Shown here one piece after another: positions 7,597 through 62,009 of a stretch of DNA of 64,000 nt. How positions within the stretch are numbered: position 1 is the first letter of the stretch; every line of letters starts with the position of its first letter. The stretch comes from Gammaproteobacteria bacterium. GTDB lineage: Bacteria > Pseudomonadota > Gammaproteobacteria > Natronospirales > REEB76. Position numbers and translations under genes: made by a program. The stretch spans positions 157,138 through 221,137 of the forward strand of contig JBAWFA010000004.1 of assembly GCA_049591455.1 (NCBI GenBank), read 5' to 3'. The notes under the pieces are model-generated. The model did not search any database, was not told the DNA's origin, and saw only the letters and a list, made by a program, of their open reading frames with translations.

Positions 7597-7688
7597 GGGC
7601 GCATCTCACTATGGGTTACCCCAGATGCAGCAAGTTACATGCCAAGAAGGCTTAAGTGATGTAAACGTTTGATTGTAGAAAGATAAAG

Positions 7689-41939: not shown

Positions 41940-42728
41940 TCAATGACCTTCCTTGCGCATGCGCTCCAGTCTTTGTTTGGCCAAGCTGGCTACGCTGGTG
42001 CCCGGATACTGGCTGATGACGCTTTCCAGTGTCTTGCGTGCAGCTTTGTAATTTCCCATTTCATACTGGGAATAGCCGGTTTTCAGCAACGCATCCGGCG
42101 CTTTGGTGGAATTCGGATAACCCTGTACCACCGCCTGATAGTTCACCAGCGCACCCTGGAAATCGCTCATCTGGTAGTGGGCCTCGCCCATCCAGAATTC
42201 CGCGTTGGGTACCAGAGAGCTTTGTGGATACTGCTGGATGAAGTTGGTAAAACCATTAATCGCGTCTTCATAGCGGCCCTGCTTCAGCAGATTGAAGTTC
42301 TGCTGGTAGGCTGCCTGATCACCGCTGGCTGTTGCCGTGCCCGTGGAACTGCCCGCTGCCGGGGCCCGAGTCGCCGCACCGCCACCCGCCACAGAGCCCG
42401 CCGCAGCTGTATTCAGACCCAGTTCCAGTTTCTGCAGACGCTTGTCCAGATCGGAATACAAGTCCCGCTGCTGCTTCTGGGTGAGCTGCTGATCGTGTTG
42501 CAGCACCTGCAGGTCGCCGCGCAGCTGATCCAACTGTTCCTGCTGATTGTCCATACTCTGGGACAGGCTCGCCAGGCTCCGGTTGTTGAGCACCTGATCC
42601 AATCGGTTCACGCGCGCTTCCAGTTGCTGCTGACGAACGTACACCGGATCGTCGGGCCGCACGGTCATGCAACCGCCCAACATACCGGTCAGCCCGGCAG
42701 CCAGCAGGATGACGCGATACGATTTCAT
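41940..42728 (-). CDS. cpoB: Tol-Pal system protein CpoB/YbgF (coiled coil + TPR)
   Basis: Signal/lipobox-like N-terminus, a coiled-coil Q-rich region and C-terminal TPRs (…YPNSTKAPDALLKTGYSQYEMGN…). ATG 42728 overlaps the pal stop (ATGA). Confidence 0.8.
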   Translation of the reverse strand: MKSYRVILLAAGLTGMLGGCMTVRPDDPVYVRQQQLEARVNRLDQVLNNRSLASLSQSMDNQQEQLDQLRGDLQVLQHDQQLTQKQQRDLYSDLDKRLQKLELGLNTAAAGSVAGGGAATRAPAAGSSTGTATASGDQAAYQQNFNLLKQGRYEDAINGFTNFIQQYPQSSLVPNAEFWMGEAHYQMSDFQGALVNYQAVVQGYPNSTKAPDALLKTGYSQYEMGNYKAARKTLESVISQYPGTSVASLAKQRLERMRKEGH

Positions 42729-43249
42729 CTCAGATACACAAGCACGGCACGGCGGTTCTGCGACCAGCAACCTTCATTGTGCTCGCTGCACACCGCATGC
42801 GCTTCACCATAACTCACGGTGCTGATCTGGTCAGGATTCACACCCTGGAACAGCAGGAAACGGCGTACGGATTGGGCGCGGCGATCACCCAGGGCGATAT
42901 TGTATTCCCAGGTACCGCGCTCGTCGGTATAACCCTCGATGCGGATCTTCTGATTGGGATTGGCAATCAGGTACTTGGCATGCGCCGTGAGCAGGTCCAG
43001 AAATTCCGGCTTGATATTGCTCTTGTCGAAATCGAAGTACACAACTTTCTTGTAGAGAATGTTGTTGGGATCATCGAGCGGGCTGAGCTGCGTCTGGGCC
43101 GGTGCGGCGGCCGTAGAGGTAGAGGGTGCCGTGGTAGCAGGTGCGGCTGTGGCAGCAGCTGGTGCCGTAACCGGTTTCACCGTTTTGGCACAACCCGCGG
43201 TGAACAGTGCCACCGCCAGTACCATGAGACCGTAACGCAGAACTTTCAT
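42725..43249 (-). CDS. pal: Peptidoglycan-associated lipoprotein Pal
   Basis: Lipobox LFTAGC and an OmpA-like domain (IEGYTDERGTWEYNIALGDRRA). Confidence 0.9.
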   Translation of the reverse strand: MKVLRYGLMVLAVALFTAGCAKTVKPVTAPAAATAAPATTAPSTSTAAAPAQTQLSPLDDPNNILYKKVVYFDFDKSNIKPEFLDLLTAHAKYLIANPNQKIRIEGYTDERGTWEYNIALGDRRAQSVRRFLLFQGVNPDQISTVSYGEAHAVCSEHNEGCWSQNRRAVLVYLR

Positions 43250-43299: not shown

Positions 43300-44610
43300 C
43301 TATTGTGACAGGAATGGACCCCAAACGGGAGCATGTACGCTCACGCCCGGCTGGGATTCCGACAGGCGTTCGCGCACCTGGCCGTCCACCGACACCTCCT
43401 CCAGCACGCCCTGGCCGCGGTAAGTGGCTTCGTAGATGATCATGCTGCCGTTGGGCGCAAAGCTCGGCGACTTATCCAGATCGCCGTCCGTCAGGGTCAG
43501 GAGTGCGCCGGTGTTGAGGTTCATAACCGCGATATGCAGTTCGCCGTTCTCACGATGCACCATGGCCAGCGTCTGGCCATCCAGTGAGACGCGCGGCCGG
43601 GCATTGTAACTGCCGTCAAAGGTGATGCGCTGGGGCGTACCACCATTCAGATTCACCTTGTATATCTGTGGACTGCCACCGCGATCCGACGTGAAATACA
43701 GACTGCGGCCGTCCGGCGACCAAGTCGGTTCGGTGTCAATGGCCTCGGACGTGGTGATACGCTGCAAGGCGTGTGTGGCGAGATTCATAACATAAATATC
43801 CGGATTGCCCGGCGAGGACGACAGCACCAGGGCCAGCGACCGGCCGTCCGGCGAAAACACCGGCGCGCTATTCAGGCCCGGCCGCTCGGACAGGAGTTCA
43901 CGCCGTCCGGTATAGATGTTCTGCCAATAAATTGCCGGCCGCTGGTTTTCGAAAGACACATAGGCCAGATACTTGCCGTCCGGCGACCAATCCGGCGACA
44001 TGATGGGCTCGTTGGAGCTGAACACCGTCTGCGGTCCGAAGCCGTCGGAATCCGCCACCACCAGCGCATAATGGCTATCCTTTCCGCCTTTTCCCGAGAC
44101 TTCCACATAAGCGATACGCGTGGCAAAGGCACCGCGCTGGCCGGTGAGCTTCTGATAAATCAGATCGCTGATTTTGTGGGCAGTCCAGCGCAAACCTTGA
44201 GACGTCGTCAGCACGGACAGACCCAGAAGCTGTTGGCCGGTGTACACGTTGAATAACTGGAACTCTACCTGGTAATTGCCTGCAGCGGCTGGCTTGATAC
44301 GGCCGATCACCAGATCGTTGACGGCCAGCACGCGCCAGTTGGTGAAATTGATGGCGCTGGCTTCCGTGGGTTTCTCCAGCATGGAACTCGAGGGAATCGC
44401 CTTGAAGCGTCCGCTGCGGGAGAGATCAGCGCCGACAACCGCCGCTACATCGGTAGCCGGCGCCGGGCCCTGCACCTGCCAGCCAAATGGCACGATAGCC
44501 ACTGGCACGGCAGTATCCACTCCACGGGTAATGGTAATTTCCAATGTTGCCTGTGAAGCTGCCAATGGAAGTAAGGCTAATCCGATAATAAATAAAAACT
44601 TACGCCACAT
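43300..44610 (-). CDS. tolB: Tol-Pal system beta-propeller protein TolB
   Basis: Signal peptide MWRKFLFIIGLALLPLAASQA and repeated ...SPDG.../...WSPDG... propeller blades. The start was set to ATG 44610. Confidence 0.9.
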   Translation of the reverse strand: MWRKFLFIIGLALLPLAASQATLEITITRGVDTAVPVAIVPFGWQVQGPAPATDVAAVVGADLSRSGRFKAIPSSSMLEKPTEASAINFTNWRVLAVNDLVIGRIKPAAAGNYQVEFQLFNVYTGQQLLGLSVLTTSQGLRWTAHKISDLIYQKLTGQRGAFATRIAYVEVSGKGGKDSHYALVVADSDGFGPQTVFSSNEPIMSPDWSPDGKYLAYVSFENQRPAIYWQNIYTGRRELLSERPGLNSAPVFSPDGRSLALVLSSSPGNPDIYVMNLATHALQRITTSEAIDTEPTWSPDGRSLYFTSDRGGSPQIYKVNLNGGTPQRITFDGSYNARPRVSLDGQTLAMVHRENGELHIAVMNLNTGALLTLTDGDLDKSPSFAPNGSMIIYEATYRGQGVLEEVSVDGQVRERLSESQPGVSVHAPVWGPFLSQ

Positions 44611-44612
44611 GT

Positions 44613-45419
44613 TTAATTCCCCGGGCCGCATCCTGGACAAAATGTAATCGTCAAATTTCTGTCGAAAATGGAGGGATCCGGCGGTGGTGGCAAGGGCGAA
44701 GATTTATACACAGCATTTACGATTGACTGACGTACTGCATCATCACCATTGCAATCTCCGAGTTGGACGTTTGTTACAGTGCCACCTGGAACCTGTTCCA
44801 CTTTTAGGATACATTTTAAATCATCTGGAGCCGTTGGTGGCTTTATCCAGTTATTCTCGATTTGTTGAGCAATCAGCGCAACCCAGTTCTGTCGATAGGT
44901 GGCTTTCTTAGCATTCAAAGCGCCCTGCTCCACCGCGATTTCTCGCTGTAATTCAGCGCGCAGTTGCGCATTTTTCGCGCTCTGGCGTTTCTTGGTCTGG
45001 GCCGCTGCCTCGGTCTTGAGCTGCGCCAGATGCTGCTGCTCCGCTTGGGCCTGTTTCTGCAAGTCCGCCAACTTCTGGTCCAGCGCCTGCTGGGTGGCCG
45101 CCTGTTGTTGCTTGAGCTGGGTGACTTTCTGCTCTTCCTGCTCACGCTCGCTCTTGGCGGCCGCCGCCTGCTGCAACAACTGCTGCTGGGCCTGTTGTTT
45201 CTGCTTTTCCTGGGCCTGTAACAGCGCCATTTGTTGATTGATCAGCTTCTGGTCCACCACCGTGGCCTGCACCGGCTGCGCAATCTGACCATTGCCGCCC
45301 AGTGACGGCAGCGTCGAATTGGTCCAGTGAATGCTCAATACCATGAGCACCACGAACCCAACGTGCAGCAGCACCGAATAAACCCAGGGCAGCAGGTGTT
45401 GTGCGCGGGTATCCATCAC
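44613..45419 (-). CDS. tolA: TolA
   Basis: N-terminal TM anchor, a long Ala/Gln/Lys/Glu-rich helical domain II and a small C-terminal domain. It sits in the tolQRAB position. Confidence 0.75.
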   Translation of the reverse strand: MMDTRAQHLLPWVYSVLLHVGFVVLMVLSIHWTNSTLPSLGGNGQIAQPVQATVVDQKLINQQMALLQAQEKQKQQAQQQLLQQAAAAKSEREQEEQKVTQLKQQQAATQQALDQKLADLQKQAQAEQQHLAQLKTEAAAQTKKRQSAKNAQLRAELQREIAVEQGALNAKKATYRQNWVALIAQQIENNWIKPPTAPDDLKCILKVEQVPGGTVTNVQLGDCNGDDAVRQSIVNAVYKSSPLPPPPDPSIFDRNLTITFCPGCGPGN

Positions 45420-53844: not shown

Positions 53845-53930
53845 TGTCTCCTGATGCCGACAGCCATAAGTCAGCACCAATTCAATGACTTGGATACCTG
53901 TTAAATTTGAACCGTCGCTGAGAAACGACA
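53845..53930 (+). promoter_or_regulatory. Upstream activator sites for P1 (TGTC-N10-GACA at 53845-53862; CGTC-N10-GACA at 53913-53930)
   Basis: The sites read TGTCtcctgatgccGACA and CGTCgctgagaaacGACA. They start 68 bp apart, and the second lies about 104 bp upstream of the sigma-54 promoter. The same geometry recurs at P2 and P3. Confidence 0.65.
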
Positions 53931-54016
53931 GTTTCACCGGCTATGTATCATTCCGGAGCAGGTCTCATTTCCAATTAAATCCGATAACTTACTGTAATTA
54001 AACGATATGTAATTTC

Positions 54017-54032
54017 TGGCATGGCGTTTGCC
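54017..54032 (+). promoter_or_regulatory. Sigma-54 (-24/-12) promoter P1
   Basis: TGGCAT-ggcgt-TTGCC, with GG and GC in canonical spacing. It lies about 66 nt upstream of ATG 54098. Confidence 0.75.
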
Positions 54033-54097
54033 TGATTTATGGACAGAAACACTGAACCCGAAATGTTCTCATCCGATCACCCATTCAGGAGACCGTC

Positions 54098-54430
54098 ATG
54101 AAAGCTGTAGTTGCAATGATTTTGACTGCGCTTCTGTCGCTTGGGTTTGGCAGTGTCTATGCCCAGACCATGCCATCGCCTCACGCTACACCGGCACCGA
54201 CACCTGCCAGCCAGCCCACGCCGCCACCGGCTCCCAAGGCCAAGCCAGTACCTGCAAAGACCCGGACAAAACCTGCCTGCATGCACGAAGACACTGCTAA
54301 TCACGATACCAAGATGATCGTAGGCCAGAGTGAGGCAGCCTGGACGAAAGCTAAAAATCGCAGCCGGCAGAAAACCCAGGCACTCAAACCGCCAGCCTGC
54401 GTTCCACCGGGCACAGGAGATTTGCCATGA
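54098..54430 (+). CDS. Small secreted Pro-rich protein (110 aa)
   Basis: RBS caggag; signal peptide MKAVVAMILTALLSLGFGSVYA. The mature part is Pro/Thr/Ala/Lys-rich with two Cys and a His/Met patch (ACMHEDTANHDTKM). Confidence 0.6.
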   Translation: MKAVVAMILTALLSLGFGSVYAQTMPSPHATPAPTPASQPTPPPAPKAKPVPAKTRTKPACMHEDTANHDTKMIVGQSEAAWTKAKNRSRQKTQALKPPACVPPGTGDLP

Positions 54431-54720
54431 CTCAGCAGTTGTTCAGACATAGGGGTTTCACCATCAAAGTGATCACTCATGAACTATTCTCGAGCAACAG
54501 TTTCTCAAACAACCATTTGGGATGGCACGCTTGCTCGATCGTGATTTCGCGAGACATGGAAGGTGAACATCATTACCACGAAGAATCTCTGCATCCCGGC
54601 AGGATATCAGTTACACCTGAACGCGCCGTGGAATACGGCAGAAAATACGCGCTGCGCATCATAGATGAAGAAATTCTGTATGCAAACTTGAGTAAATTCC
54701 TGTCAGCCCGCCCGATATAG
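54427..54720 (+). CDS. Hypothetical cytoplasmic 97-aa protein, paralog A
   Basis: It overlaps the upstream gene by ATGA. It is a paralog of 57120..57407, sharing the pattern GF.(I/V)KVI..E...(gap)...PG.I.VT.ERA.E.G..YA...ID. It has a His-rich patch EGEHHYHEESLH. Confidence 0.6.
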   Translation: MTQQLFRHRGFTIKVITHELFSSNSFSNNHLGWHACSIVISRDMEGEHHYHEESLHPGRISVTPERAVEYGRKYALRIIDEEILYANLSKFLSARPI

Positions 54721-54774
54721 CATGTTCTTCTGACGCATCCGGCAAACAACCAGTACACGCAATGGAGGCTCCAA

Positions 54775-55482
54775 ATGAATACGCCAGTCAATCCGGACAT
54801 CGCCAACATCATTAATCCGCCCAATCTGTCACTGGGACAGTTGCTCCTGCATGCGGACCCGGTTGTCCAGGCGGTCATCCTGGTGTTGCTGATATTTTCC
54901 ATATGGAGCTGGGCGGTAATGGTGCAAAAGGCCTTCGAATTGCATCGTGCAAAACGCACGGTCAGCAAACTTGAAATCGCCATCGAGAACGGTCAGACAC
55001 CGGACGAAATTGGCGTGGATGAATCCCATCCCGCGGCCTTGTTGATCCAGGTGGGTGTTCGGGAAGCCCAATCGCTGCCGGGATCAAAGACGCAAGAATC
55101 CCAGGCCGAAGAGCGTGAGCGCATTGAACGCAGCATGCGGAATGCTCTCAGCCACGAAATGCGCCGCATCCAGAAACGTTTGCCGGTGCTCGCCACCGTC
55201 GGCTCGGTTGCGGTATTCATCGGTCTGTTCGGCACCGTCTGGGGAATCATGAACAGCTTTACGGCCATCGCCCAGGCTCATGACACCAGCCTCGCAGTGG
55301 TTGCGCCGGGTATCGCCCAAGCGCTCATCGGCACGGCCGCGGGTCTGGTGGCGGCGATTCCCGCCGTCATCGGTTACAACAAATTTGTCACAGAGATGGG
55401 CTATTACGCCGGACGCTTGCAGACACTCATCAGCACCTGCGGCGGCCTGCTGGTCAAAGGTATCCGCGGGGAGGGCGATTGA
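54775..55482 (+). CDS. exbB: ExbB (MotA/TolQ/ExbB family)
   Basis: Three TM segments and a conserved block VFIGLFGTVWGIMNSF. It is followed directly by exbD and tonB. Confidence 0.85.
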   Translation: MNTPVNPDIANIINPPNLSLGQLLLHADPVVQAVILVLLIFSIWSWAVMVQKAFELHRAKRTVSKLEIAIENGQTPDEIGVDESHPAALLIQVGVREAQSLPGSKTQESQAEERERIERSMRNALSHEMRRIQKRLPVLATVGSVAVFIGLFGTVWGIMNSFTAIAQAHDTSLAVVAPGIAQALIGTAAGLVAAIPAVIGYNKFVTEMGYYAGRLQTLISTCGGLLVKGIRGEGD

Positions 55483-55483
55483 C

Positions 55484-55966
55484 ATGGCCATGAACCTTGC
55501 GCGCAGTGCTCCCCCTGACGACGAGCTTTCCGGTTATCACCCCATGGCGGAAATCAATGTAACGCCACTGGTGGACGTGATGCTGGTATTGCTCATCATT
55601 TTCATGATTACCGCGCCCCTGATGATGGCGCAATTGCCCATCGAGCTGCCGAGAACCAGCGCCGCGGAACTGGGCAAACCCAAGCAACCACTGATCGTGA
55701 GCCTGGATGCGAAAGGCCAGTTTTACCTTGGCGGCAAGCCGGTAGCGGCGGTTGACCTGCCGGCGCAGCTCAAAACTCTCGCCAGCCAGGATCCGGACCA
55801 GACCGTCTATGTTCGCGCCGACAAAACCATCCCCTACGGACAAGTGATGGCATTGCTGGGAGAAGTGGGTCAATCGGGTTTTTACAAGATATCTTTGATC
55901 AGCAAGCAGGCAGGCGCACCCCCGGGCACGAAGTCAGATACGCAGACAAACACACCGCCGGGCTGA
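55484..55966 (+). CDS. exbD: ExbD
   Basis: AEINVTPLVDVMLVLLIIFMITAPLM motif. ATG 55484 lies 1 nt after the exbB stop; the longer listed ORF is an out-of-context extension. Confidence 0.85.
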   Translation: MAMNLARSAPPDDELSGYHPMAEINVTPLVDVMLVLLIIFMITAPLMMAQLPIELPRTSAAELGKPKQPLIVSLDAKGQFYLGGKPVAAVDLPAQLKTLASQDPDQTVYVRADKTIPYGQVMALLGEVGQSGFYKISLISKQAGAPPGTKSDTQTNTPPG

Positions 55967-55969
55967 ATC

Positions 55970-56587
55970 ATGACCCGGTTCAGCCACAGCTTCGAGATTT
56001 CCGTGGGCATTCACGCCGCGGTGATTGGGCTTGTGATCCTGCTGGCTTATTATCATCCTGCCACGCCGTTGCCACCTTCAAATGCCTCATTGGCAAACGC
56101 CATTGCGGTAACTGTCGCCCCGCCGCCACTGCCACAATCACCGCCGCAGCCACCTCAACCGCAGCCGGCTCCGCCAGTGCCGCAGCCGCCACCCCAAACC
56201 ATTTCCACCCAAGCCTCACAGGCGGACATTACCACCCCGCCGCCCAAGAGCGTACCTCTTCCGTCACCGCCGCAACCCGCCCAAACGCAGACAACACCCC
56301 TGGAAGCCACTTATGCACAGATTGTGAGCGCCATCCTGGAGGCGAATAAACGCTATCCGCGGGAAGCGCTGATGGCCGGCGATGAAGGCACCGTGGTGAT
56401 CTCGTTCATCCTCAACCGCGAAGGTACCGTGCTCGCGTATAGCATTGAACAGTCTTCCGGTCAGCCGATTTTCGATGAAGCGGTGAAACGTCTGATCCAG
56501 CGCGTGCATTTTCCACCTTTCCCGCGAGGGGATCTTAGCCAGCGCAAAACCTTTAAAGTACCGATTCAGTTCGAGTTGAATAGTTGA
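55970..56587 (+). CDS. tonB: TonB
   Basis: N-terminal TM anchor, a Pro-rich spacer (PPPLPQSPPQPPQPQPAPPVPQPPPQ) and a C-terminal TonB domain (YPREALMAGDEGTVVISFIL...). Confidence 0.85.
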   Translation: MTRFSHSFEISVGIHAAVIGLVILLAYYHPATPLPPSNASLANAIAVTVAPPPLPQSPPQPPQPQPAPPVPQPPPQTISTQASQADITTPPPKSVPLPSPPQPAQTQTTPLEATYAQIVSAILEANKRYPREALMAGDEGTVVISFILNREGTVLAYSIEQSSGQPIFDEAVKRLIQRVHFPPFPRGDLSQRKTFKVPIQFELNS

Positions 56588-56596
56588 TGCCAAGCC

Positions 56597-56681
56597 TGTC
56601 TCAGGACAACGACAGAATGTTTTCAATTAAATTCAAGAAATTGGCGATTTGTGAGCCAATTCGCGTCGTTCCAGGACGACA
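56597..56681 (+). promoter_or_regulatory. Upstream activator sites for P2 (TGTC-N10-GACA at 56597-56614; CGTC-N10-GACA at 56664-56681)
   Basis: The sites read TGTCtcaggacaacGACA and CGTCgttccaggacGACA. They start 67 bp apart, and the second lies about 102 bp upstream of the promoter. Confidence 0.65.
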
Positions 56682-56765
56682 GTTTTCCATATCAACGCCC
56701 GTGAACCAGCAATTAGACATCAACGCAATTCTGTAACTCCTTGAAAAAATACATCACTTTATTTC

Positions 56766-56781
56766 TGGCATGGCATTTGCT
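56766..56781 (+). promoter_or_regulatory. Sigma-54 (-24/-12) promoter P2
   Basis: TGGCAT-ggcat-TTGCT within the shared context atttcTGGCATGG..TTGC. Confidence 0.75.
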
Positions 56782-56858
56782 CGCATAACAGCCAAGAAGC
56801 GGTAAAGAAATTGCATTCACAGGCCCATATATCACTCGACACCGCATCAGGAGGTACC

Positions 56859-57092
56859 ATGAAACCCGGACACGTGACAGTATTGATAACGTTGTTGGTT
56901 CTCGGTTCCGTCGCTGGCTGCACCAGCAAGAGTCAGCAGAATGACCAGCAAACGACACCCGCACCGGCAACCCAGCAGGCGCCCGCCCCTGCCACTCAAT
57001 CAGCTCCCACTCCAACCACTCAGCAGGCACCCCAGCACACCACTCACAGGGCTGCGACGAATGCCGACCAGCAACTGCCACCGCCGCTCTGA
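56859..57092 (+). CDS. Small Gln/Pro/Thr-rich lipoprotein (77 aa)
   Basis: RBS aggagg; lipobox LGSVAGC. It has a low-complexity QQAP/TPAP mature region and ends ...LPPPL, like the 57439 paralog. Confidence 0.6.
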   Translation: MKPGHVTVLITLLVLGSVAGCTSKSQQNDQQTTPAPATQQAPAPATQSAPTPTTQQAPQHTTHRAATNADQQLPPPL

Positions 57093-57119
57093 TAAGCCCG
57101 CTTACACAGGAGAGTTGTC

Positions 57120-57407
57120 ATGGCTCATAAAATCTTTGGCTACAAGGGTTTTGTCGTAAAAGTCATACCCCGCGAAGTTATCACCGGGAAATCAGCTGCT
57201 AGCAGATGTATCCGATATGCTGCATCCGTCGTGATCATGCGCTTCACAGGCGCTTCGCGACAGAAGTATGAAATGCGCTGTTATCCAGGCGGCATCTGCG
57301 TAACGCGGGAACGAGCGCTGGAATTAGGCACGGACTATGCCACGCATGTCATTGACGACGATTTTTCCAATGCGTCCGTGACAGAGCAGCAAGCATCCTT
57401 TTCCTGA
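57120..57407 (+). CDS. Hypothetical cytoplasmic 95-aa protein, paralog B
   Basis: Paralog of 54427..54720 (MAHKIFGYKGFVVKVIPREV...PGGICVTRERALELGTDYATHVID). RBS aggag. Confidence 0.6.
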   Translation: MAHKIFGYKGFVVKVIPREVITGKSAASRCIRYAASVVIMRFTGASRQKYEMRCYPGGICVTRERALELGTDYATHVIDDDFSNASVTEQQASFS

Positions 57408-57438
57408 ACCATCCACACAACCCAGCAAGGAGACAATC

Positions 57439-57633
57439 ATGAAAAGCGCATATACAGCCATCCCCGCAATACTACTGCTCGCCGGCTTGGTGGCCGGTTG
57501 CTCCGGGAATGCGCCCGACCAGACAGGAAGTACACAGGCGCCACAATCTACAACTCAACAGGCGCCGACGCCCACGACTCAGTCGTCGGCACCCGCATCC
57601 ACTACCCAGCAAGTACCGCCACCACCACTGTGA
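57439..57633 (+). CDS. Small Gln/Pro/Thr-rich lipoprotein (64 aa)
   Basis: RBS aaggag; lipobox LVAGC. The TQQAPTPTTQ repeats and the C-terminal PPPPL resemble 56859..57092. Confidence 0.55.
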   Translation: MKSAYTAIPAILLLAGLVAGCSGNAPDQTGSTQAPQSTTQQAPTPTTQSSAPASTTQQVPPPPL

Positions 57634-57659
57634 TCGCATAGCAATATGTGCCAGCAGAT

Positions 57660-57683
57660 CCCCGGCCGATTTTCTGGCCGGGG
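57660..57683 (+). terminator. GC-rich hairpin after the P2 operon (terminator candidate, no U-tract)
   Basis: ccccggcc-gattttct-ggccgggg, an 8-bp perfect stem 27 nt after the stop of the 57439 gene. Confidence 0.4.
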
Positions 57684-57727
57684 ACGCGAACAGCGAGGCT
57701 TGATTTGAACCTGCCATGTCCCCATGC

Positions 57728-57812
57728 TGTCTCCTGCTGCCGACAGGTCCATTCCGATTCAATTCAGCACCTTGTGAATTCATGCGACTGTCCATGTCTC
57801 GTCACGGCAACA
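57728..57812 (+). promoter_or_regulatory. Upstream activator sites for P3 (TGTC-N10-GACA at 57728-57745; TGTC-N10-AACA at 57795-57812)
   Basis: TGTCtcctgctgccGACA is 17/18 identical to the P1 distal site. The second site, TGTCtcgtcacggcAACA, starts 67 bp downstream and lies about 103 bp upstream of the promoter. Confidence 0.6.
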
Positions 57813-57897
57813 GCTTTCTGGCATTGGGATTTGATCTCAACCCGCATAACACCCTCAGATAACGGCAGCTCGGGGCAAAACAGCGCAGCTTCGATTC

Positions 57898-57913
57898 TGG
57901 CATGGCACTTGCT
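57898..57913 (+). promoter_or_regulatory. Sigma-54 (-24/-12) promoter P3
   Basis: TGGCAT-ggcac-TTGCT, about 75 nt upstream of ATG 57988. Confidence 0.75.
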
Positions 57914-57987
57914 TGATATACATGTAGGAACGATGGATATAAATCGTGCCATTCGCAAACCACCCAATGACTTATCAGGAGGCAAAT

Positions 57988-58326
57988 ATGAAAACCGCAA
58001 TCGCAACCACCCTAGCAACTCTGCTCGCACTTGGTGTGGGTGTAGCTTTCGCTGGCACACCGCAAAATGCCAGCCAGCAGAATATGCAGACACCGACAAT
58101 GGCTCAGCATGCTACGCCCGCCGATCCGCAAAACGCCTGCAGCAGTAAATACCCGGACTTCAACCAAGTAGATACTGCGCACCAAGGTTACATTACCAAG
58201 AAAGAAGCCCGGAAAGTTCCGGGTCTGGTGCAATCATTTAAAAAGGCCGATACCGACCACAATGGCAAGCTGAGTCAGGCGGAATATAAAGCTTGGGTCC
58301 AATCAAAATGCGGTTCCATGGGATAA
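57988..58326 (+). CDS. Secreted EF-hand calcium-binding protein (112 aa)
   Basis: RBS aggagg; signal peptide MKTAIATTLATLLALGVGVAFA. It has a canonical EF loop DTDHNGKLSQAE plus a degenerate one VDTAHQGYITKKE. The start was set to ATG 57988. Confidence 0.7.
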   Translation: MKTAIATTLATLLALGVGVAFAGTPQNASQQNMQTPTMAQHATPADPQNACSSKYPDFNQVDTAHQGYITKKEARKVPGLVQSFKKADTDHNGKLSQAEYKAWVQSKCGSMG

Positions 58327-58407: not shown

Positions 58408-58449
58408 TTCTCGGCCGCGCCCCGTAAGCCGTGGGGTTGCGGCCGAGAA
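58408..58449 (+). terminator. Long imperfect hairpin after the EF-hand gene (terminator or REP-like element)
   Basis: ttctcggccgc-g-cccc-gtaagccgt-gggg-tt-gcggccgagaa, giving 11 + 4 bp of pairing. It is flanked by TATATA-like AT-rich runs, and no clean U-tract follows on the plus strand. Confidence 0.45.
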
Positions 58450-58533: not shown

Positions 58534-60036
58534 ATGACCAGGGCAGCCTCCTGTTGCCGACGCCATCGCAGCAGCGCACACAAGGTTTGGAGCAGCAGTG
58601 TGAAATTAATCCAGTCCAGCTCCATACGCAAACGGATACTGTTCGCCTTCTCGCTGGTGGTACTGCCGCTGATCGTCGGACTGGCTGCGGCGATTCTTTC
58701 CATCCAGAAACTCGGCACTCAGGGCCAACTCGCGGTCCTGAACGCGGCTAACACAGTACAATATAGCCGCCTGTTGTTGGAAGAACTGCCCGACATGGAG
58801 CGTAATGCGCTTCAATACAGGGTGCTGCATGACCCATCGCTATACGCGCTGTATGTGGAACGCCACCAGCAATTTCAGCAGACCAGTGCTGACTTTTCCC
58901 GTCTGAATCTCAACGATGCCATGCGCGAGAAACTCAACGAACTCAGCACGCGCGAACTGGTGGTGTTCAACAATTTCTCAAAAGTTAATCCGAACTCGGC
59001 CGACTCCAGTATTGCAGTGGCACAATTCGAGGATCTTAATAACCTGGCGCGATCCATTCTGGCACAAGGCACGCAATCCATCGCCACCGAAATCAACAAC
59101 ATGCAAACAGCCGCCAGCCGGCACCAGCGCCAGTTGGCATGGCTGGCTGCGATTCTGATCCTGCTGGCTTTTCTATTGGCGCTGGTGTTCATCGTGCACA
59201 TCACCCGGCCAATACGGGCAATAGACCAGGCCATCCGGAAACTGGGTGCCGGCGAACTCGCCACTCCCATCCTCGTGCAAGGACCGCGTGATTTGGAAGA
59301 ACTGGGCAAGCGCCTCGACTGGTTGCGTGCCCGCCTGCTTGAGCTTGAAGAACACCGCGTCCGTTTCCTGAGACACATTTCCCATGAACTCAAAACGCCG
59401 CTGACCAACATACGTGAAGGAACCCAGTTGCTAACCGAGCAGGTGGTGGGCCCTCTTAACCCGGAACAGCTTGAGATTGCACAGATTCTGAACAAAAATG
59501 GCCTGCAGCTGCAAAAACGAATCGAAGATCTGTTGAATTTCAGCGCCGCGCAAGGATCCCGAATCTTCAAGGAGGATCAACTGGTGAAATTCAATCGCGT
59601 GGTGACGAAGGTGGTGGAGGAACAAAAAATGGCCATCAAGGCCAAACACATCAAAATTGACGCCCGTTTGCGCGAAGCCACAGTTCTTGCGGATGCAGAA
59701 GAAATTCGCATCGTCGTGGACAACCTGCTTTCCAATGCCATTAAATACTCTCCCACCGGCGGCACGATCCGACTGTTCCTTAAAGTCAAGGACGGGCAGG
59801 CAGTTCTGCACGTGAAGGATCAAGGCCCAGGAATACGACCGGATGAAAAGGAGAAGATTTTTGAGGCCTTCTATCAGGGTCAGGACAGCAATTCCGGTTA
59901 TGTGAAAGGCACGGGCCTGGGTTTGTCCATCGCTCGTGAATACATGCGTGTCCACCATGGGGTCATTGAAATTGTCGAACAACAAAAGGGCGCGCATTTC
60001 CGCGTTGCCCTGCCGGCAGCCCGCCTGGGAGTTTGA
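58534..60036 (+). CDS. Sensor histidine kinase, GlrK/QseE-like (2 TM, HAMP, HisKA, HATPase)
   Basis: H-box FLRHISHELKTPLTNI, N-box LLSNAIKYSP and G-box GTGLGLSIAREY. The likely real start is GTG at about 58600 (VKLIQSS...), preceded by ggag. Confidence 0.85.
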   Translation: MTRAASCCRRHRSSAHKVWSSSVKLIQSSSIRKRILFAFSLVVLPLIVGLAAAILSIQKLGTQGQLAVLNAANTVQYSRLLLEELPDMERNALQYRVLHDPSLYALYVERHQQFQQTSADFSRLNLNDAMREKLNELSTRELVVFNNFSKVNPNSADSSIAVAQFEDLNNLARSILAQGTQSIATEINNMQTAASRHQRQLAWLAAILILLAFLLALVFIVHITRPIRAIDQAIRKLGAGELATPILVQGPRDLEELGKRLDWLRARLLELEEHRVRFLRHISHELKTPLTNIREGTQLLTEQVVGPLNPEQLEIAQILNKNGLQLQKRIEDLLNFSAAQGSRIFKEDQLVKFNRVVTKVVEEQKMAIKAKHIKIDARLREATVLADAEEIRIVVDNLLSNAIKYSPTGGTIRLFLKVKDGQAVLHVKDQGPGIRPDEKEKIFEAFYQGQDSNSGYVKGTGLGLSIAREYMRVHHGVIEIVEQQKGAHFRVALPAARLGV

Positions 60037-60621
60037 ATGTACATTATTTGGCGTTACATGCCTTTACTACTCGCCGCACCGATGTTCATATCCATGGCGG
60101 GCTGTGTCCCACACGCCGCACGGCCGGATGTGGTGGTGGTGCCGGAGACAAGCGAAGACCAGATTGCGCAGGTTTTGGACTATGTAAGCATCATTTCGAA
60201 TGAACCTCCTGCTGCGCAAGCGGCGGCGCAGGAAAAACTGGCGGTCCAACTTAAGTTGACGCAGTTCCCAGAGGACCGAATGCGCCTCGCCCTGTTGGAC
60301 GCCCTGCTACCCGCACCCGCACGCAATGACGGCCACGCGACCATGCTGCTTTCAGGATACAACTGGGAAGCCGTGGGACCGGGCTTCAAGGGATTGGCCG
60401 TGTTGGTCTTGAGTGTCCTGAAGGCGCGGCAGATAGATGCCAGCAATTACCAGGCGCTCACGGAGCAGTTGACGTCCGAGCGTACTCAAAAAGCCCACCT
60501 GCAGCAACAGCTCGATGCATTGAAGAGCATCGAAAAAACCATGAACAGCCGCGACAAACCCGTCGTGACGTCGCCTGCAGCCAACTCCCATGCTCCCGCC
60601 ACGCCGCCCAGTGAACCATGA
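60037..60621 (+). CDS. Lipoprotein encoded between the kinase and regulator genes (QseG/YfhG position)
   Basis: Lipobox ISMAGC and a helical/coiled-coil segment (QLTSERTQKAHLQQQLDALKSIEK). The ATG abuts the HK stop and the stop overlaps the RR start (ATGA). The assignment is by position only. Confidence 0.55.
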   Translation: MYIIWRYMPLLLAAPMFISMAGCVPHAARPDVVVVPETSEDQIAQVLDYVSIISNEPPAAQAAAQEKLAVQLKLTQFPEDRMRLALLDALLPAPARNDGHATMLLSGYNWEAVGPGFKGLAVLVLSVLKARQIDASNYQALTEQLTSERTQKAHLQQQLDALKSIEKTMNSRDKPVVTSPAANSHAPATPPSEP

Positions 60622-62009
60622 CTCCAGCGGTAACCCAAACCCACGCGGCACAAGGGCGCATCCTGGTAGTGGATGACGACCCGGGTCTGCAGCGCCTCTT
60701 GGTGATGCGCCTGACTGCTGCCGGTCACAAGGTTCAAACGGCGGACAGCGGCGAACAGGCGCTGGTGCAATTGCCGTTGTTCCGGCCGCAGGTGGTGATT
60801 ACCGACCTGCGTATGAGCGGCATGGATGGCATGACCTTGTTCAACAACATCCGTCGCCGCGACCAGACCTTACCGGTGATCATCCTCACCGCCCACGGCA
60901 CCATCCCCGACGCCGTGGATGCTACCTACAACGGCGTGTTTGCGTACCTCACCAAACCTTTTGACAGCCAGATGTTGTTGAAATGGGTGGACGATGCCCT
61001 GCGCATTGCCGGCAAGCCTTACCTGCCGGAGGAACATGACCCCACGCCGTCTTGGCGTACTGGCATCATCACCCGTAGCCTGCTGATCGAAGACCTGTTG
61101 CATCAGGCAAAGCTGGTGTCCTCCGGCGATGTTGCCGTCCTCATTCAGGGTGAGAGCGGCACCGGCAAGGAACTGCTGGCGCGTGCCATCCACCAAGCCA
61201 GTCCCCGCGCCGACAAGCCTTTCGTGGCTGTGAATTGTGCCGCCATTCCCGAAACCCTACTGGAATCCGAGCTATTCGGTTACAGCAAAGGTGCGTTTAC
61301 CGGTGCCACTGCGGACCGGCGCGGGTTATTCCAGGCCGCCGATGGCGGAACCCTGTTTCTGGATGAAATCGGCGACATGCCCTTGAGTTTCCAGGTAAAG
61401 CTGCTGCGCGTTCTGCAGGAAAAGGAGGTCCGCCCGGTGGGCGCGAATCATCCAGTGGCCGTGGATGCACGCATTATTTCAGCGACCAATCGGGACCTTG
61501 AACAGCGGGTCACGTCACGTGAATTCCGCGAGGATTTGTTCTACCGGCTGGCTGTGGTGCCATTGACTATGCCACCGCTGGCAGCCCGCCGTGAAGATAT
61601 CCCACTGCTGGTTACCCATTTTCTGAGCCTGTTGTCCAAAGGCAATGGAAAGAAAATCAGGGGTTTCTCGCCCCAGGCAATGGAATTGCTGCTGAGTGCC
61701 CCCTGGCCTGGAAACGTACGCCAGTTGCAAAACGTGGTTGAGCAAACTGCGGCGCTCGCGACCACACCGCTTATACCCGAGATACTGGTTCAGAACGCGC
61801 TCCGCGACAAGACTGGGCAGGTAGCTTCACTCTCAGAGGCACGGGAACATTTCGAACGGGAATATCTGGTGCAACTTCTGCAGATTACTGAAGGTAATGT
61901 TAGCCAGGCAGCACATCTGGCCAAGCGCAATCGCACTGAATTTTACAAGCTGCTGCACCGGTATCAACTCGATCCGGTAGCGTTCCGCACGGGCTCCGGA
62001 GAAAGCTGA
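60618..62009 (+). CDS. Sigma-54-dependent response regulator, NtrC family (GlrR/QseF-like)
   Basis: REC domain ([10 protein letters not shown]...[12 protein letters not shown]), AAA+ Walker A GESGTGKE, the sigma-54 contact loop GAFTGA and a C-terminal Fis-type HTH ([21 protein letters not shown]). Confidence 0.9.

Follow-up and report, generated by a model that had tools for sequence, protein, structure and literature searches.

What activates three closely spaced sigma-54-type promoters that lie just upstream of a two-component operon, and what do these promoters drive? The question is raised by a 64,000-nucleotide stretch of contig JBAWFA010000004.1 from a Gammaproteobacteria bacterium (the whole of this 64 kb stretch is called the window below), in which three promoters, here named P1, P2 and P3, are each preceded by a pair of palindromic sites of the TGTC-N10-GACA type. 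The operon resembles that of GlrKR (QseEF), a system that is well studied in Enterobacterales and whose main outputs there are GlmY and GlmZ, both of them small RNAs (sRNAs). We conclude that P1, P2 and P3 are very probably sigma-54 promoters with upstream enhancers, which the adjacent GlrR/QseF orthologue would activate. An earlier note on this DNA had proposed a local regulon of the adjacent two-component system—a proposal now supported by the identity of the regulator, its recognition helix, a geometry like that of glmY, and a set of orthologous loci.

Three predicted enhancer-promoter modules within 4 kb

A pattern search of the window places TGGCAT-N5-TTGC on the + strand at 54017, 56766 and 57898, the same positions at which the earlier note had read three -24/-12 promoters. 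There are four matches to this pattern in the window against 0.34 expected, and no shuffle attained four; the remaining match, at 7630, is on the - strand. The three promoters have in common the context TTTC/ATTC-TGGCATGGC-n-TTTGC or CTTGC, with the extended form TTC-TGGCATGGC-N2-TTGC. Exact copies of TGTC-N10-GACA are also more frequent than expected (four against 0.88); three of them, at 53845, 56597 and 57728, are the distal sites of the three modules, and the fourth is at 42548. The proximal sites carry 1 mismatch each and start at 53913 (CGTC..GACA), 56664 (CGTC..GACA) and 57795 (TGTC..AACA). Defining a full unit as a promoter with two sites (at most 1 mismatch) that are 55-80 bp apart and no more than 260 bp upstream, we find three units in the window; at least one unit appeared in just 1 of 1000 dinucleotide-preserving shuffles.

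Site positions are counted to the T of TGGCAT, a ruler that we also used for glmY of E. coli K-12, and all elements named here are on the + strand unless stated. In P1 the putative distal activator site is at 53845-53862 (TGTCTCCTGATGCCGACA, -172) and the putative proximal site at 53913-53930 (CGTCGCTGAGAAACGACA, -104), followed by the -24/-12 element at 54017-54031 (TGGCATGGCGTTTGC). The corresponding elements of P2 are at 56597-56614 (TGTCTCAGGACAACGACA, -169), 56664-56681 (CGTCGTTCCAGGACGACA, -102; also called as a terminator-like hairpin) and 56766-56780 (TGGCATGGCATTTGC), and those of P3 at 57728-57745 (TGTCTCCTGCTGCCGACA, -170), 57795-57812 (TGTCTCGTCACGGCAACA, -103) and 57898-57912 (TGGCATGGCACTTGC). 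The earlier note had given the proximal sites as 102-104 bp upstream of the promoter and the distal sites as 67-68 bp further up; re-measurement of every distance agrees with this. From the usual geometry of sigma-54 promoters, transcription would start near 54043 (P1), 56792 (P2) and 57924 (P3). Neither the + strand of the region nor the DNA ahead of the kinase gene gave a sigma-70-like promoter.

Between the two sites of each module lies a sequence that resembles the consensus of integration host factor (IHF). The motif of P1 (53880-53892, ATTCAATGACTTG) has 1 mismatch to WATCAANNNNTTR, and its position and orientation are unchanged in orthologues; that of P2 (56631-56643, ATTCAAGAAATTG) also has 1 mismatch and is kept in all 7 orthologues. 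P3 has a degenerate version with 2 mismatches in the same relative position (57762-57774, ATTCAGCACCTTG). P2 has a second IHF-like motif just upstream of the promoter, on the - strand at 56734-56746 (TTTCAAGGAGTTA), starting at -32; a promoter-proximal motif at -32/-33 is also present in L002, L004, L007, L083 and L089, loci of other bacteria that are described below.

In a three-way alignment of the modules, identity is clustered in five elements: both sites, the intervening motif, the extended form of the promoter and the ribosome-binding site (RBS) TCAGGAG. The spacers are essentially unrelated; by our count, invariant columns make up about 70% of positions inside these conserved elements against about 19% elsewhere. 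A short G(T/C)TT(T) extension stands directly 3' of each proximal site, at 53931-53934 (GACAGTTT), 56682-56686 (GACAGTTTT) and 57813-57817 (AACAGCTTT). It is kept in the orthologues of this lineage, with an A-run in its place in E. coli and Burkholderiales; its role may be that of an intrinsic bend or of a longer contact, and one terminator-like call arose from it.

A GlrKR-type operon next to the modules

The genes downstream of P3 encode a kinase, a lipoprotein and a regulator in the same order as glrK-qseG-glrR. The regulator (463 amino acids (aa), 60618-62009, +) has a REC domain, an AAA+ domain with GAFTGA, and a helix-turn-helix domain; along its whole length it shares 56% identity with E. 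coli GlrR (443 aa aligned), and its GAFTGA motif, Walker A motif and Asp56 equivalent are as in that protein. Among NCBIfam models GlrR scores highest (594.7 bits), ahead of NtrC (418). The regulator shares its recognition helix, residue for residue, with GlrR of E. coli and Xenorhabdus; the same helix is common to GlrR-like orthologues, and it differs in activators that are 40-45% identical. This regulator is the sole GAFTGA protein encoded in the window.

The sensor histidine kinase is GlrK/QseE-like: it matches E. coli GlrK at 33% identity across 414 aa (E = 3e-71), and the gene order is the same. No GlrK model was among the 25 NCBIfam matches listed, of 79 in total. Its gene most likely starts at 58600 (58600-60036, +, 478 aa, as called in relatives) rather than at 58534. 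Between kinase and regulator lies a gene for a 194-aa lipoprotein (60037-60621, +) with the lipobox MAGC and a size similar to that of QseG. Its similarity to QseG is weak but collinear (BLASTP 24% identity, E = 0.002), and hhalign aligns 45 C-terminal columns with 87% probability (E = 3.9e-6), including an LDALKSIEK..SR motif; the protein has no Pfam or NCBIfam match. Similarity and gene order thus support the GlrK/QseG/GlrR-like operon that the earlier note had placed at 58534-62009, with a probable correction to its first coordinate.

Likeness to glmY and to other sigma-54 systems

The modules invite comparison with the GlrR (QseF)-, sigma-54- and IHF-dependent glmY and glmZ promoters of Enterobacterales, for which Reichenbach 2009 is reportedly also a source. 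GlrR binds three TGTCN10GACA sites upstream of the sigma-54 promoters of glmY and glmZ (Goepel 2011, PMC3045617). In glmY, two IHF-like motifs (WATCARXXXXTTR) flank the proximal activator-binding site, ABS3; IHF site 1 is essential, and ABS1 is dispensable (PMC3045617). In E. coli K-12 glmY we measured ABS1 at -203, ABS2 at -170 and ABS3 at -107. The distal sites of our modules (-172 to -169) nearly match ABS2, and the proximal sites (-104 to -102) lie close to the position of ABS3. In both systems an IHF-like motif, degenerate in P3, stands between the two promoter-proximal sites, centred at -144 in glmY and at -131, -129 and about -130 in P1, P2 and P3; the P1 motif would be the counterpart of glmY IHF site 1. 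A second motif just upstream of the promoter starts at -31 in glmY and at -32 in P2. The likeness extends to the sites themselves, which follow the consensus TGTC(T/G)C..(G/C)CGACA across all groups compared, enteric sites included, and to their setting: the module adjoins the glrK-qseG-glrR operon, and P3, like glmY, is directly upstream of the kinase gene. In contrast to glmY, the modules have no overlapping sigma-70 promoter, occur three times within 4 kb, and appear to give mRNAs for envelope proteins as products.

Protein-coding output has one reported parallel. Passages in PMC6358824 and PMC7073468 that cite Klein 2016 describe the E. coli rpoEP2 promoter as dependent on QseF and RpoN, with a protein-coding target that is tied to envelope stress. 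Here too the target of the same activator would be protein-coding and linked to the envelope; however, rpoE encodes a sigma factor and lies far from the two-component locus, whereas P1, P2 and P3 precede operons beside it, the products of which are secreted proteins and lipoproteins, an EF-hand protein and a TonB system. The earlier note had held that such an output is not the one described for this two-component family. This stands for the particular genes but not for protein-coding genes in general—because rpoEP2 is a reported QseF target, protein-coding output is not unprecedented for QseF/GlrR.

More broadly, enhancers of the NtrC family (NtrC at glnAp2, DctD at dctA, ZraR at zraP) consist of tandem dimer sites 100-200 bp upstream of the -24/-12 element. 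The modules resemble them in their tandem sites, in the IHF-aided looping proposed for them, and in a putative regulon that adjoins the two-component genes, but differ from NtrC and ZraR systems in recognition sequence and recognition helix, which here belong to the GlrR clade. We also considered the NifA upstream activator sequence, TGT-N10-ACA, and ruled it out: in our sites TGT and ACA are 12 bp apart, and the window holds no NifA-like gene.

Conservation in six syntenic loci

By way of the 97-aa protein encoded downstream of P1, we located six syntenic loci from uncultured proteobacteria (L083, L085, L087, L089, L090 and L091). Their gene order is constant: small secreted protein, 97-aa protein, ExbB, ExbD, TonB, lipoprotein, a paralogue of about 91 aa, lipoprotein, EF-hand protein, kinase, QseG-like lipoprotein and regulator. 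The P1 and P2 modules are present in all six. Their two sites enclose an IHF-like motif and, in every case where the pair belongs to one promoter, are 65-68 bp apart; L091 has three complete modules. Aligned, these loci have conserved islands at the sites, at the IHF-like motif and at the promoter, with diverged spacers around them. The P1 distal site is kept in L083, L089 and L091, the P1 -24/-12 element is kept in orthologues, and the TGTCTCA..CCGAC core of the P2 distal site is invariant across all 7 orthologues. The earlier note had named conservation of motif spacing at orthologous loci as a test of its reading, and motifs and spacing are indeed retained in the six.

Three of these loci have a fourth module that is divergent from P1, at 9069 (-) in L085, 9079 (-) in L087 and 6477 (-) in L090, with sites at -161/-94; in L085 and L090 there is also an IHF-like motif, placed at -127. 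The genes that it would drive are one of 92 aa, one with a BON domain and then locus-specific ones (110 aa and 175-178 aa in L085 and L087; 102 aa, DUF4382 and 169 aa in L090), and the distal site of this module is also the site that lies far upstream (-217) of P1. In the window this position is taken by a glucosaminidase-domain gene.

Genes behind the three promoters

Each promoter is followed within 55-67 nt by an open reading frame (ORF) with an RBS. All target ORFs have the strong RBS TCAGGAG, and their proteins are conserved across the six related loci. The outputs of P1, P2 and P3 would appear to be mRNAs for envelope proteins rather than GlmY/GlmZ sRNAs. Rfam found two tRNAs and nothing else in the window, and so no GlmY or GlmZ RNA; the same search detected GlmY in a Xenorhabdus locus that served as a control.

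The P1 unit (all +) opens with a gene for a 110-aa secreted, Pro-rich protein (54098-54430) that has a signal peptide and two Cys; it belongs to no Pfam family, and its C-terminal block C..NHD..W..C is found again in relatives. The second gene (54427-54720) encodes the 97-aa orphan protein, without a signal peptide. Together with its P2 paralogue it belongs to a family with only 9 members among 5.8 billion clustered proteins, and all locatable members are in this syntenic locus. A structural model of the 97-aa protein combines a three-stranded sheet with a 30-residue helix (predicted local distance difference test score, pLDDT, 75); there is no Pfam or NCBIfam family and no Foldseek match in the PDB with E < 0.8. 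These genes are followed by those for an ExbB/TolQ-family proton-channel subunit (54775-55482; Pfam MotA_ExbB, E = 1.4e-34), an ExbD/TolR-family subunit (55484-55966; Pfam ExbD, E = 9.7e-34; the L081 gene call maps to this start) and a TonB-family protein with an N-terminal anchor and a Pro-rich linker (55970-56587; Pfam TonB_C, E = 1.6e-17). The ExbB, ExbD and TonB domains are thus encoded together in P1, all well over Pfam cut-offs; the ExbB and ExbD genes are under the NCBIfam equivalog cut-offs for TolQ, ExbB, TolR and ExbD. Because the window also has a separate Tol-Pal cluster at about 42-45 kb (pal-like 42725-43249, tolB-like 43300-44640), the ExbBD-TonB genes of P1 come on top of a Tol system.

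The P2 unit (+) encodes a 77-aa lipoprotein (56859-57092; lipobox VAGC, rich in Gln, Thr and Pro, C-terminus PPPL), a 95-aa paralogue of the 97-aa protein (57120-57407; 33% identity, E = 4e-18) and a 64-aa lipoprotein (57439-57633; C-terminus PPPPL). P3 precedes a gene for a 112-aa secreted protein with two EF-hand loops (57988-58326, +), for which Pfam EF-hand_6, EF-hand_1 and EF-hand_5 are all over their cut-offs; a lanmodulin identity is ruled out, the score being 25 bits where the cut-off is 135. For the small secreted proteins and the lipoproteins, searches gave sub-threshold, low-complexity 'New_glue' matches, which we disregarded, and no others.

Polyproline tails recur on many secreted products of the predicted regulon (e.g., 57081-57092 and 57619-57633 in the window). 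Across the window and L083-L091 the lipoproteins end in PPPL, PPL, PPPI, PPPV or PPPSI; in relatives, the EF-hand proteins end in TPPPV(G) and the products of P1 gene 1 in KPPPI or KPPPN. The window's own EF-hand protein has no such tail. The tail could be a common sorting or interaction tag, perhaps for the co-regulated TonB-like motor.

Two hairpins (both +) punctuate the region. A G+C-rich hairpin with a 10-bp stem and without a T run follows the P2 operon (57659-57684) and is a possible terminator; a strong hairpin in the RNA fold lies between the EF-hand and kinase genes (58408-58449) and is a possible terminator or attenuator. The P3 leader also contains an inverted repeat, ACGAT-N8-ATCGT (57930-57947, +), that forms a small hairpin in the fold. 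In the form ACGAT-N7-9-ATCGT(G), 6-25 nt into the predicted leader, it is kept in 7 of 7 orthologous loci (the window, L083, L085, L087, L089, L090 and L091), even where the promoter precedes a different first gene, and some P2 leaders have a similar GCGAT..ATCGC repeat. As a hairpin it might stabilise the 5' end, or it might be bound by a protein.

GlrR orthologues in other lineages

Comparison of the regulator with species-representative genomes returned GlrR-like orthologues at 50-63% identity, among them that of Xenorhabdus, in which Rfam places GlmY upstream of glrK. In seven mainly betaproteobacterial loci, a sigma-54 promoter with two TGTCG..CGACA sites, 56-68 bp apart, lies directly downstream of the glrR orthologue, often with an IHF consensus between the sites (AATCAATGACTTG in L002, AATCAAGCACTTG in L007). 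The genes behind these promoters vary. In Sulfuriferula (L001) the promoter is followed by a gene for an EF-hand protein and then one for a protein with EF-hand and BON domains; in Herbaspirillum (L002), by a BON-domain gene; and in a Burkholderiales metagenome-assembled genome (MAG; L006), by a gene for a membrane-anchored protein. In Rhizobacter (L007, 6311-10127) the first gene encodes MdoG, a protein of periplasmic glucan synthesis (Pfam E = 1e-193), and the next is a 727-aa ORF that we take to be a putative OpgH; in Variovorax (L004, 11541-13794) the promoter precedes a family-2 glycosyltransferase, presumably a putative OpgH-like protein. These two modules would link GlrKR orthologues to the control of periplasmic glucans. 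No convincing gene was identified after the promoter in a beta-proteobacterial MAG (L005). A sigma-54-like match in L009 was not counted as a promoter, being within the kinase coding region.

Outside this set, a gammaproteobacterial MAG (L003) has paired sites (1 mismatch each, 79 bp apart) and a sigma-54 promoter before an EF-hand gene that is directly upstream of the kinase gene—the arrangement found at P3. Because QseEF in E. coli acts on glmY/glmS and rpoEP2, the periplasm and envelope theme of these loci fits its envelope role there.

A different kind of output is suggested by the seventh of the mainly betaproteobacterial loci, in a Burkholderiales MAG (L013, JANMNT010000125.1, 7427-7590), where, downstream of the glrR orthologue, two exact TGTCG..CGACA sites and TGGCAC-N5-TTGC precede, in place of an ORF, an apparently structured, terminator-ended RNA of about 135 nt. 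Its terminator is GGGGTGATC..GATCACCCC-T7, and the 159-nt fold has a minimum free energy of -69.6 kcal/mol (z = -5.4). No Rfam family covers the RNA, a candidate for a GlrR-dependent sRNA outside Enterobacterales.

Proposed mechanism and alternatives

Taken from sequence comparison, the following order of events can be proposed. The GlrK-like kinase would sense an envelope or periplasmic signal and phosphorylate the regulator, with the QseG-like lipoprotein probably modulating the kinase. Regulator dimers would then occupy both TGTC(T/G)C-N6-NCGACA sites, whose centres lie about 95 and about 162 bp upstream of the -24 element, and IHF-type bending—at the motif between the sites and, at least in P2, at the second motif about 30 bp upstream of the promoter—would loop the AAA+ ring onto sigma-54 holoenzyme at TGGCAT-N5-TTGC, where ATP hydrolysis would open the promoter. 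P1 would thereby give the secreted Pro-rich protein, the 97-aa orphan and ExbB-ExbD-TonB; P2, a lipoprotein, the 95-aa paralogue and a second lipoprotein; and P3, the periplasmic EF-hand protein. Because no sigma-70-like promoter was found before the kinase gene, read-through past the P3 hairpin into that gene, leading to positive autoregulation, is plausible.

Several observations weigh against activation by the adjacent regulator through a glmY-type enhancer. The regulator's score is under the NCBIfam GlrR equivalog cut-off of 763 bits. Each promoter has two sites, with no counterpart of ABS1, whereas glmY has three (although ABS1 is the one reported as dispensable), and the centre-to-centre spacing of the sites is 67-68 bp here against 63 bp in enterics. 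The P3 IHF-like motif has the 2 mismatches noted above, the P3 orthologue in L083 is without recognisable sites, and in L085, L087 and L090 the P3 promoter is one gene further upstream and has at most a proximal site. Neither P1 nor P3 has a clear promoter-proximal IHF-like motif.

Some other enhancer-binding protein, encoded elsewhere in the genome, might bind the paired sites of what are real sigma-54 promoters: PilR and other NtrC-family activators use short TGTC-containing repeats, the view is of 64 kb only, so that another activator of similar specificity is possible elsewhere, and the sub-cut-off score of the regulator leaves room for it. We consider this explanation unlikely, since the recognition helix is that of E. 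coli GlrR, which binds TGTCN10GACA, the module co-localises with glrR orthologues in several independent lineages, and the window encodes no second GAFTGA protein. A variant that retains the regulator would have the GlrR-like protein bind the sites chiefly to repress or autoregulate the two-component operon; the small upstream ORFs would then be incidental and no functional regulon. P3 is directly upstream of the kinase gene, as glmY is in enterics, and no separate promoter for the kinase gene was detected; but the target ORFs have strong RBSs and proteins kept in the six related loci, P1 and P2 are separated from the kinase gene by 2-4.5 kb and by hairpins, and in other lineages the module precedes BON-domain, EF-hand and periplasmic-glucan synthesis genes, which makes this variant very unlikely.

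The palindromes might instead be leftovers of the tandem duplication of promoter-plus-gene units, or terminator hairpins of the upstream genes. An old duplication is plausible, because P1 and P2 both open with a small secreted protein and then a 95-97-aa paralogue, and the P2 proximal site followed by AGTTTT was called terminator-like. However, the paralogues have diverged to 33% identity, and neutral intergenic DNA as old as they are would keep no similarity, yet sites, spacing and IHF-like motif persist between the paralogous modules and across orthologues. The distal sites form 4-bp stems only, one of the six sites was called as a terminator, the total of terminator-like calls is not above that in shuffles, and the same sites in E. 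coli glmY are proven activator sites; we regard this explanation as very improbable. Activation by the adjacent GlrR/QseF orthologue is the reading that we carry forward.

Other matches in the window

The - strand TGGCAT-N5-TTGC match at 7630-7644 (TGGCATGTAACTTGC) is about 35 nt upstream of an ORF at 7596-6328, which we take to encode a putative membrane-fusion protein (HlyD-type); the ORF at 6331-4895 is presumably a putative outer-membrane factor (TolC-type). An IHF-consensus motif starts at -30, and there is no TGTC-N10-GACA pair upstream. This match may be a sigma-54 promoter served by another activator. The fourth exact TGTC-N10-GACA, at 42548-42565, was dismissed: it falls within a cpoB/ybgF-like coding region that belongs to the Tol-Pal cluster, no sigma-54 promoter is close to it, and it is most likely a chance match.

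Meaning for GlrKR outside Enterobacterales

Orthologues of GlrKR are listed for beta- and deltaproteobacteria (PMC8895600). Our literature searches found no description of a GlrR/QseF regulon outside enterics, Betaproteobacteria included, which is not proof of absence. The regulatory device is already known; what is new is its occurrence in three tandem copies in one locus. Also new would be the envelope-protein mRNA outputs in place of GlmY/GlmZ, among them those for a second TonB system, for an EF-hand protein and for a pair of orphan proteins, and the apparent conservation of glmY-type enhancer geometry across Beta- and Gammaproteobacteria, far beyond enterics.

We can only tentatively suggest a history for this arrangement. 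A sigma-54/GlrR/IHF enhancer beside glrK-qseG-glrR may be ancestral to Beta- and Gammaproteobacteria and may first have driven a regulon for periplasm homeostasis, with the enterobacterial glmY sRNA later replacing the protein-coding gene in the slot upstream of glrK; the ancestral regulon would, on the same doubtful footing, have comprised EF-hand proteins that bind calcium, BON/OsmY-like proteins, genes for periplasmic-glucan synthesis, small lipoproteins and an ExbBD-TonB motor of its own. If true, this history would give QseEF/GlrKR a defined physiological output outside enterics, and would mean that an sRNA gene took over an enhancer-promoter that already existed.

The locus and its relatives provide a concrete, testable predicted regulon of a non-enteric GlrR, whose apparent targets all act in the envelope—and since the regulator and E. 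coli GlrR have one and the same recognition helix, E. coli can serve to test the prediction despite the uncultured source.

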